A DNA stretch of 43,825 nt. Origin: Klebsiella phage phi1_146001. The stretch lies in sequence record PP889457.1, one strand, 5' to 3'. Position numbers and translations under genes: made by a program. The notes beneath the pieces were generated by a model that saw only the letters and a program-made list of their open reading frames with translations, had not been told where the DNA came from and did not search any database. Within the stretch, counting starts at the first letter, position 1, and each line of letters opens with the position of its first letter. Positions 5,758 to 5,779 of this stretch are shown here, piece after piece.

Positions 5758-5779
5758 GAAATGATGTTACCGGAGTAGG
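5758..5779 (+). promoter_or_regulatory. Conserved 22-nt motif AAATGATGTTACCGGAGTAGGA (copy 1 of 2); candidate phage-RNAP promoter or origin-associated element
   Basis: 21 of 22 nt identical to 26971..26992. Preceded by TGATACGA, which recurs at 18511. Confidence 0.35.

Follow-up and report, generated by a model that had tools for sequence, protein, structure and literature searches.

Probable cognate promoters of a KP34-type RNA polymerase in Klebsiella phage phi1_146001 and a divergent promoter-like element after its DNA polymerase block

The window, that is, the whole analyzed stretch of 43,825 nt from Klebsiella phage phi1_146001 (PP889457.1), is, judging by alignment, a circularly permuted Drulisvirus genome (KP34-like Klebsiella podovirus); Drulisvirus is the KP34-like genus of the Slopekvirinae, Autographiviridae. 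The non-coding stretch of the window and the junction following its RNA polymerase (RNAP) gene match about 250 Klebsiella phages of this genus with 82-100% identity. Nucleotide 1 of KP34 aligns to window position 5254, which places the physical left end of the genome there. The genome-end sequence CCCTCACCCTGAACGC…CCCCCATAGGGGG (5254-5291) is common to the Koutsourovirus Salmonella phage KKP 3828 (end of L113), which suggests a terminase or end-recognition sequence kept across genera. It is followed by a variable poly-G tract (approximately 5300-5312) and, in the left-end non-coding DNA at 5480-5660, by dense short direct repeats on CTAGTG and GCTATC units (families D1, D2, D5 and D7), whose copy number differs among phages. 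Rfam matches were found nowhere in the window.

Two near-identical 22-mers lie on the plus strand, AAATGATGTTACCGGAGTAGGA at 5759-5780 in the left-end region (copy 1) and AAATGAAGTTACCGGAGTAGGA at 26971-26992 at the junction of the RNAP gene and the late genes (copy 2). They share 21 of 22 positions and are the sole matches to the 22-mer in the window at up to three mismatches, and none was obtained in 100 dinucleotide-preserving shuffles. A chance repeat was rejected, as zero matches are expected both from the shuffles and from the scans with the 16-mer and the TRAWGT pattern described below. The pair of 22-mers reported in the original prediction is thus real, and the position given there for copy 1, 5758-5779, was one base low. 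The description of their surroundings also holds. Copy 2 begins two bases past the stop codon of the 822-aa RNAP ORF and abuts the start codon (ATG 26993) of a 146-aa ORF (26993-27433). Copy 1, located about 290 nt beyond the terminal repeat (216 nt in KP34), precedes no gene, sitting in a 1.7-kb ORF-poor non-coding left-end stretch with approximately 780 nt free of ORFs downstream.

The interpretation of these repeats relies on the work of Lu et al. 2019 (Front Microbiol 10:2487, PMC6834552), who purified the RNAP of KP34 and, by 5'-RACE and in vitro transcription, defined its strong promoter as the 16-nt sequence 5'-T(A/G)ATGTTACAGGAGTA-3'. In KP34 this promoter occurs about 480 nt from the left end (nt 475-490, TGATGTTACAGGAGTA), directly after the RNAP gene (nt 22197-22212) and inside the large internal-virion-protein gene (nt 33721-33736; both TAATGTTACAGGAGTA), all three being equally strong in vitro, and the transcript start at nt 22213 has been mapped by 5'-RACE (PMC6834552). 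The 14-nt core is much weaker, the loss of just the first two bases strongly lowering the activity (PMC6834552).

Coordinates of the features discussed in the text (positions in the window)
Feature	Position	Strand	Sequence	Description
Invariant 17-nt element	5736-5752	+	ACTTTCATTCGAAAGCT	9 nt upstream of S1
S1, predicted left-end promoter	5762-5777	+	TGATGTTACCGGAGTA	one mismatch to KP34 TGATGTTACAGGAGTA; predicted start G5778
AT-rich near-perfect palindrome	18441-18475		GTCAACTAAATAATT...AATTATTTGTTGAC	30 nt upstream of X; predicted hairpin; includes TTGAC
X, divergent promoter-like element	18506-18526 (16-mer 18506-18521)	+	TAATGTGATACGAGTA-GGAAC	intergenic, after the DNA polymerase block
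RNAP gene, 822-aa single-subunit enzyme	24501-26969	+		790/822 residues (96%) identical to KP34 RNAP
Codons of RNAP residues 703-706 (TIMR)	26607-26618	+		specificity-loop block covarying with promoter base -7
W, orthologue of the KP34 weak promoter	26922-26941	+	ACTCTGGACATCCGGCAAGT	two mismatches to ACTTTGGACATCCGTCAAGT; within the RNAP gene, at its 3' end
S2, predicted post-RNAP promoter	26974-26989	+	TGAAGTTACCGGAGTA	orthologue of KP34 nt 22197-22212; predicted start G26990
Strong intrinsic terminator	31879-31916	+		12-bp stem, 9 GC pairs, T8; after the capsid block
S3, predicted third promoter copy	38975-38990	+	TAATGTTACCGGAGTA	orthologue of KP34 nt 33721-33736; predicted start G38991

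Each of the 22-mers contains a close match to the KP34 16-mer (S1 and S2), and a third copy, S3, absent from the original prediction, lies 743 nt (about 740 nt in KP34) inside the ORF 38232-41930, the 1232-aa internal-virion-protein gene. The match to the KP34 sequence is 15/16 for S1 and S3 and 14/16 for S2, with a chance expectation of 0.49 at up to three mismatches; the minus strand holds no copy of the 16-mer. The deviation common to all window copies is C in position 10 (-7), a genus-wide allele, and S2 moreover departs from the tested KP34 sequences in position 4 (A for T). All three sites occupy positions orthologous to those of KP34 (left end, after the RNAP gene, internal-virion-protein gene), and a KP34-like RNAP is encoded in the same genome. 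We therefore assign a probability of roughly 0.93 to the reading that the 22-mers, together with the copy at 38975, serve as cognate promoters for the T7-type single-subunit RNAP that the phage encodes; the activity of such promoters, carrying C at -7, with the window RNAP would follow by analogy with KP34.

The original prediction had proposed phage-RNAP promoters by analogy, and the presence of the KP34 strong promoter within both 22-mers at orthologous positions bears it out (PMC6834552). Its remark that this phage group has a poorly defined consensus no longer holds, since the consensus was defined in 2019 (PMC6834552) and catalogued in 135 genomes in 2025 (PMC11880802); that survey, PhageProm (NAR 2025), reports 467 predicted KP34-like promoters in these genomes, approximately 3.5 per genome. 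The promoter class and its distribution in the genus are already known, and no discovery is claimed for the 22-mers; their novelty is low, as the element belongs to a known, experimentally defined promoter class. In vivo transcription-start maps for any Drulisvirus were not found in the literature searched. The weak promoter of KP34 likewise has an orthologue in the window, W, whose conservation is uninformative since it lies in coding sequence. The MEME "promoter" of Eriksson et al., annotated in SU552A and KP-Rio, was set aside as inactive with KP34 RNAP (PMC6834552).

Conservation was analyzed in 68 Drulisvirus genomes and partial genomes: the window itself, five GenBank genomes, and IMG/VR loci surrounding the portal gene or early gene 2, which were combined contig by contig. 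The original prediction had named absence or poor conservation of the motif in sister phages as evidence that would speak against it; in fact, the three sites are kept across the 68 genomes, each locus covering a site having that site. S1 is present in 44 left-end loci, where the 16-mer and the adjoining GGAGGG are invariant except for three positions, forming an invariant island amid non-coding DNA. The 17-nt element upstream of it, which holds a small palindrome CTTTC-ATTC-GAAAG, shows no variation among 41 distinct left-end sequences, and the next 5 nt, just upstream of S1, vary among relatives (GATAC, ATTAT, AATCT or AATAC). The sequence TGATACGA, noted in the original prediction as preceding copy 1, falls in these sole variable 5 nt of the otherwise invariant stretch, and its resemblance is thus due to chance. 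S2 was found at each locus spanning the RNAP junction, and the S3 16-mer is invariant, with neighboring codons varying at third positions. The Drulisvirus motif is absent from the more distant relatives, Koutsourovirus KKP 3828 and Erwinia phage Loshitsa2.

The base at -7 (position 10) is A in some genomes and C in the others, the sites of one genome never disagreeing: 11 genomes have A in all three promoters, 16 have C in all three, 30 have concordant pairs, and no mixed genome was observed. In S3 the change is synonymous (Thr codons ACA and ACC), hence protein coding cannot explain the agreement. The corresponding bases of the window promoters are 5771, 26983 and 38984.

The correlations show that this base is associated with a short segment of the RNAP, an enzyme that in the window phage is homologous to T7 RNAP along the full length (E = 3e-69). 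The specificity loop is readable in 66 of the 68 genomes; among these, SAVL in residues 703-706 occurs with A at -7 (30/30), and TI(M/L/V)R with C at -7 (36/36). In the set of 48 distinct RNAPs, residues 703, 704 and 706 split the two types perfectly and residue 705 almost so, the next best column reaching 0.92. Moreover, in a tree of the RNAP without this block the A- and C-types are interspersed, with at least five changes and with nearest neighbors of the other type for 6 of 48 sequences, so that the coupling is not a simple split into two clades. By both its promoters (C at -7 in all three) and its loop (TIMR), the window phage is assigned to the C-type, and KP34 to the A-type (A at -7, SAVL).

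In T7 RNAP the base-reading residues of the specificity loop are R746, N748, R756 and Q758. The HMMER alignment with the T7 loop pairs R696 with R746, D698 with N748, R706 with R756 and H708 with Q758, with posterior probabilities of only about 0.5-0.6, and the MAFFT alignment of eight sequences pairs T703 with Q758, so that residues 703-706 correspond to T7 residues 753-756 in the former and 758-761 in the latter; the two alignments differ by 2-5 residues in the loop register. Under both of them the covarying residues fall within the loop homologous to T7 residues 739-770, and the greatest variation between genera in the MAFFT alignment is seen at the 703-706 block. Where the template strand has G at -7, residue 706 is Arg, and where it has T, the residue is Leu, as would be expected for Arg-guanine readout (a direct contact here being possible), with the qualification that promoter position -7 does not coincide exactly with -9, the position of the base that R756 reads in T7. 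Conceivably, A(-7)/SAVL and C(-7)/TIMR could be two natural RNAP-promoter pairs that are orthogonal to each other and have stayed matched within the genus despite recombination. Neither the C-type 16-mer nor the pairing of -7 with residues 703-706 was found in the searchable literature; the accessible part of the PhageProm survey (PMC11880802), where the covariation analysis concerns T7-like pairs, contains no statement on this pairing or on the element X described below. The pairing points to residues setting the promoter choice in KP34-type polymerases, and, if the two natural classes prove mutually selective, they would provide ready-made orthogonal enzyme/promoter pairs.

S2 begins 5 nt after the RNAP stop codon, its predicted start precedes ATG 26993 by 3 nt, and its GGAG (26984-26987, positions -6 to -3), located 5 nt upstream of this ATG, is the only plausible ribosome-binding site there. 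This could be taken to mean that the repeats serve translation, as a Shine-Dalgarno GGAG with its start context, or else that they are recombination hot spots, a reading that we find hardly credible: S1 has no downstream ORF and S3 lies in frame inside a gene, 16 conserved nucleotides are far more than ribosome binding requires, promoter activity has been proven for the KP34 sequence (PMC6834552), and the covariation with the RNAP loop would be left unexplained. Within the promoter reading, the GGAG of S2 is at the same time the Shine-Dalgarno sequence of the gene starting at 26993. Every locus examined has this arrangement, and so does KP34 (start 22213, ATG 22216). As S2 transcripts are predicted to begin with GGA-AUG, the first late gene would have a 3-nt leader, with the Shine-Dalgarno sequence available only on read-through transcripts from upstream; the gene would be translated from those or in a near-leaderless manner.

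A relative of the 22-mers had been reported at 18511, and TGATACGAGTAGGAA is indeed present at 18511-18525. It had been described as a condensed, shorter copy; however, the element as a whole (X) has the same length as the other copies and aligns with them without gaps over 16 nt, as seen from TAATGT-GATAC-GAGTA in X versus TAATGT-TACCG-GAGTA. The alternative of TGATACGA plus GTAGGA being a deletion derivative of copy 1 was rejected, given the variability of the 5 nt upstream of S1 and this gap-free alignment. X keeps positions -16 to -11 and -5 to +3 of S1-S3, with the core -10 to -6 being GATAC and not TAC(A/C)G. It matches the 16-nt consensus of KP34 in 13 positions and that of its own phage in 12, all mismatches falling within -10 to -6. 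The pattern TRAWGT-N5-GAGTAGG occurs in the window only at S1, S2, S3 and X, with zero occurrences expected, so the resemblance is not due to chance.

Of 53 Drulisvirus loci, A-type and C-type alike, 52 carry X without any change, and its base -7 is A in all 53 (25 A-type, 28 C-type), so that it does not track the RNAP class. The intergenic region around X is conserved as a whole, and the alignment of five phages from four genera contains an invariant TTGAC, a TGTGA-like element and a promoter-like element at fixed spacing. The order of elements in the window (18384-18541) is TAACATGGAAAT, an AT-rich stretch, TTGAC, TGTGA about 12 nt further on, the degenerate promoter, GGA..ACAAC and a ribosome-binding site; the same architecture is observed across four genera, in Loshitsa2 (L114) at 12444-12608, in L119 at 12280-12484 and in L113 at 12270-12358. 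No structured RNA was detected at X, the fold being no better than that of shuffles (z = -0.5). The ORF immediately downstream of X (18510-18938) encodes an HNH-type endonuclease (…CIDHGKS…HRVVY…CDNPRCINPEHL…), and other Drulisvirus phages have a different gene in its place (gp5.5-like in KP34); the ORF has the appearance of a homing endonuclease inserted at a promoter-proximal site.

Other genera are informative in this respect. Loshitsa2 carries a 19/24 copy of its own motif TTTAGAGTAACACGCTTAGGAGAA at the post-DNA-polymerase position. In Vibrio phage VP93 the motif TTTAAAGTCCCACG(A/T)ACAGG occurs after the RNAP gene and inside the internal core protein gene, and a 16/22 copy of it is found at the equivalent middle-region intergenic site. 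For KKP 3828 the phage's own promoter motif was looked for and not identified. X is thus probably promoter-related, and, since other genera carry copies of their own motifs at the same place, a divergent phage promoter is favored: the chances that X is a divergent promoter of the phage RNAP, or at least an RNAP-binding element, are in our estimate about even.

A different reading is that X is not read by the phage RNAP and belongs to a middle promoter for host sigma-70, of which it would form the -10/start region and 5' leader. In that case the constant A at -7, regardless of the RNAP type, would be natural, as would be the deviation of the X core from the cognate consensus in four of five positions, exactly where T7-type enzymes are most stringent; moreover, the upstream sequence contains the invariant TTGAC and an AT-rich stretch, and TTGATT-N18-TAATGT can be read with X supplying the -10 box. 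On the other hand, the promoter scan reports no promoter at X, a manual reading scoring 7/12 at best where at least 9/12 with a 16-18 nt spacer was required, and in none of the five phages is TTGAC followed at 17 nt by a -10-like sequence. A host -10 box gives no reason for 13 specified bases, including GG of the GGA start, to recur only at S1-S3 and X with zero occurrences expected, nor for the elements of Loshitsa2 (19/24) and VP93 (16/22) to resemble the promoters of these very phages. The host promoter seems to us somewhat unlikely on balance, and what remains of the likelihood after it and the divergent phage promoter goes to an origin or some other regulatory role.

The primary origin of T7 consists of phi1.1A/B with an AT-rich region, and phiOL is a secondary origin. 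The palindrome upstream of X recalls this promoter-plus-AT-rich design, and S1, lying 509 nt from the genome end and upstream of the early promoters, with no ORF for about 780 nt, is placed like phiOL. These features, as well as the invariant 17-nt element preceding S1 and the intergenic architecture around X kept across four genera, are compatible with S1, and possibly X, being mainly replication-origin or DNA-end-processing elements, at which transcription by the phage RNAP would prime or activate replication. Against it, the left-end promoter is antisense in Loshitsa2 and LUZ19 (PMC10914365), which misfits a conserved rightward priming, and the cumulative GC skew has no turning point at S1 or X. 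We hold a predominantly origin-related function to be quite unlikely, and it would refine the promoter reading rather than replace it, as the elements must still be promoters.

A more tentative extension of the promoter reading of X, which we regard as rather doubtful, is that X, the AT-rich palindrome and TTGAC together form a middle control module of phiKMV-like phages, with a fourth promoter of different core and relaxed dependence on the specificity loop, perhaps serving also as a replication origin. As to the middle promoter or origin that is missing in these phages, X is in any event a concrete candidate.

By homology with KP34 and T7, the RNAP would bind the duplex 16-mer (-16 to -1), the specificity loop reading the center of the promoter and the AGTA segment melting, with the start at G immediately 3' of GTA; transcripts predicted from 5778, 26990 and 38991 would each begin with GGA. 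Again by homology, transcription by the host RNAP covers the early and DNA-metabolism genes through the RNAP gene. S2 would then launch late structural transcription, through the head genes to the terminator and with read-through into the tail genes; this terminator, annotated at the same place in KP34, probably ends or attenuates S2 transcripts. S3 may re-initiate transcription within the internal-virion-protein gene toward the tail-fiber, terminase and lysis genes. A host-type early promoter was found at 6188, early promoters being annotated also in relatives; S1 is upstream of them, at the position of phiOL of T7, and may direct phage-RNAP transcription across the early region to its right, perhaps for re-expression, replication priming or end processing. 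Transfer from KP34 allows late transcription in this phage to be annotated directly (starts 5778, 26990 and 38991, terminator 31879).

Compared with KP34, the window has the same 16-nt element (14-15/16 identical) at the same three positions and on the same strand, with the same GGA start context, and retains W; the differences are C instead of A at -7, TIMR instead of SAVL in the loop, and A instead of T in position 4 of S2. The system resembles that of T7 in having a single-subunit RNAP, a promoter of approximately 17 bp ending at -1 and followed by a G start, one promoter near the left end upstream of the host early promoters, and a beta-hairpin specificity loop setting the promoter identity, a loop residue and a promoter base differing together between T7 and T3. 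Of the T7 analogy drawn in the original prediction, the phiOL-like left-end position stands, whereas the promoter class does not: those that immediately follow gene 1 in T7 reportedly belong to class II (phi1.1A/B), origin-associated, and not to class III. Unlike T7, the window has 3-4 promoters instead of 17, their sequences being unrelated to those of T7 except for the 5' TAAT; the RNAP gene is located at the end of the DNA-metabolism block and not at its start, there is no right-end (phiOR-like) copy, and the specificity loop is 3-4 residues shorter.

The KP34-like set of PhageProm (PMC11880802) represents the same promoter category, with repeated motifs in genomes encoding KP34-like RNAPs. 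Promoters of LUZ19 and phiKMV have been mapped by ONT-cappable-seq (Putzeys et al. 2024, PMC10914365). The LUZ19 promoters share with those of the window a sparse layout (after the RNAP gene, in the structural region and near the left end) and near-perfect conservation within the genus, but they have a different consensus, GgtTATGTCACacACAnnGG, two promoters after the RNAP gene instead of one, and a left-end promoter that is antisense, S1 being sense (PMC10914365). Loshitsa2 has five copies of TTTAGAGTAACACGCTTAGGAGAA, at 454 (minus strand), 12559, 14037, 20454 and 20538; two copies follow the RNAP gene, and the left-end copy is oriented as in LUZ19 and unlike S1 of Drulisvirus. The orientation of the left-end promoter is therefore not universal in phiKMV-like phages. 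The present analysis adds the third copy S3, the covariation of base -7 with the specificity loop, which defines two classes, and the cross-genus evidence on X as a promoter-related element.
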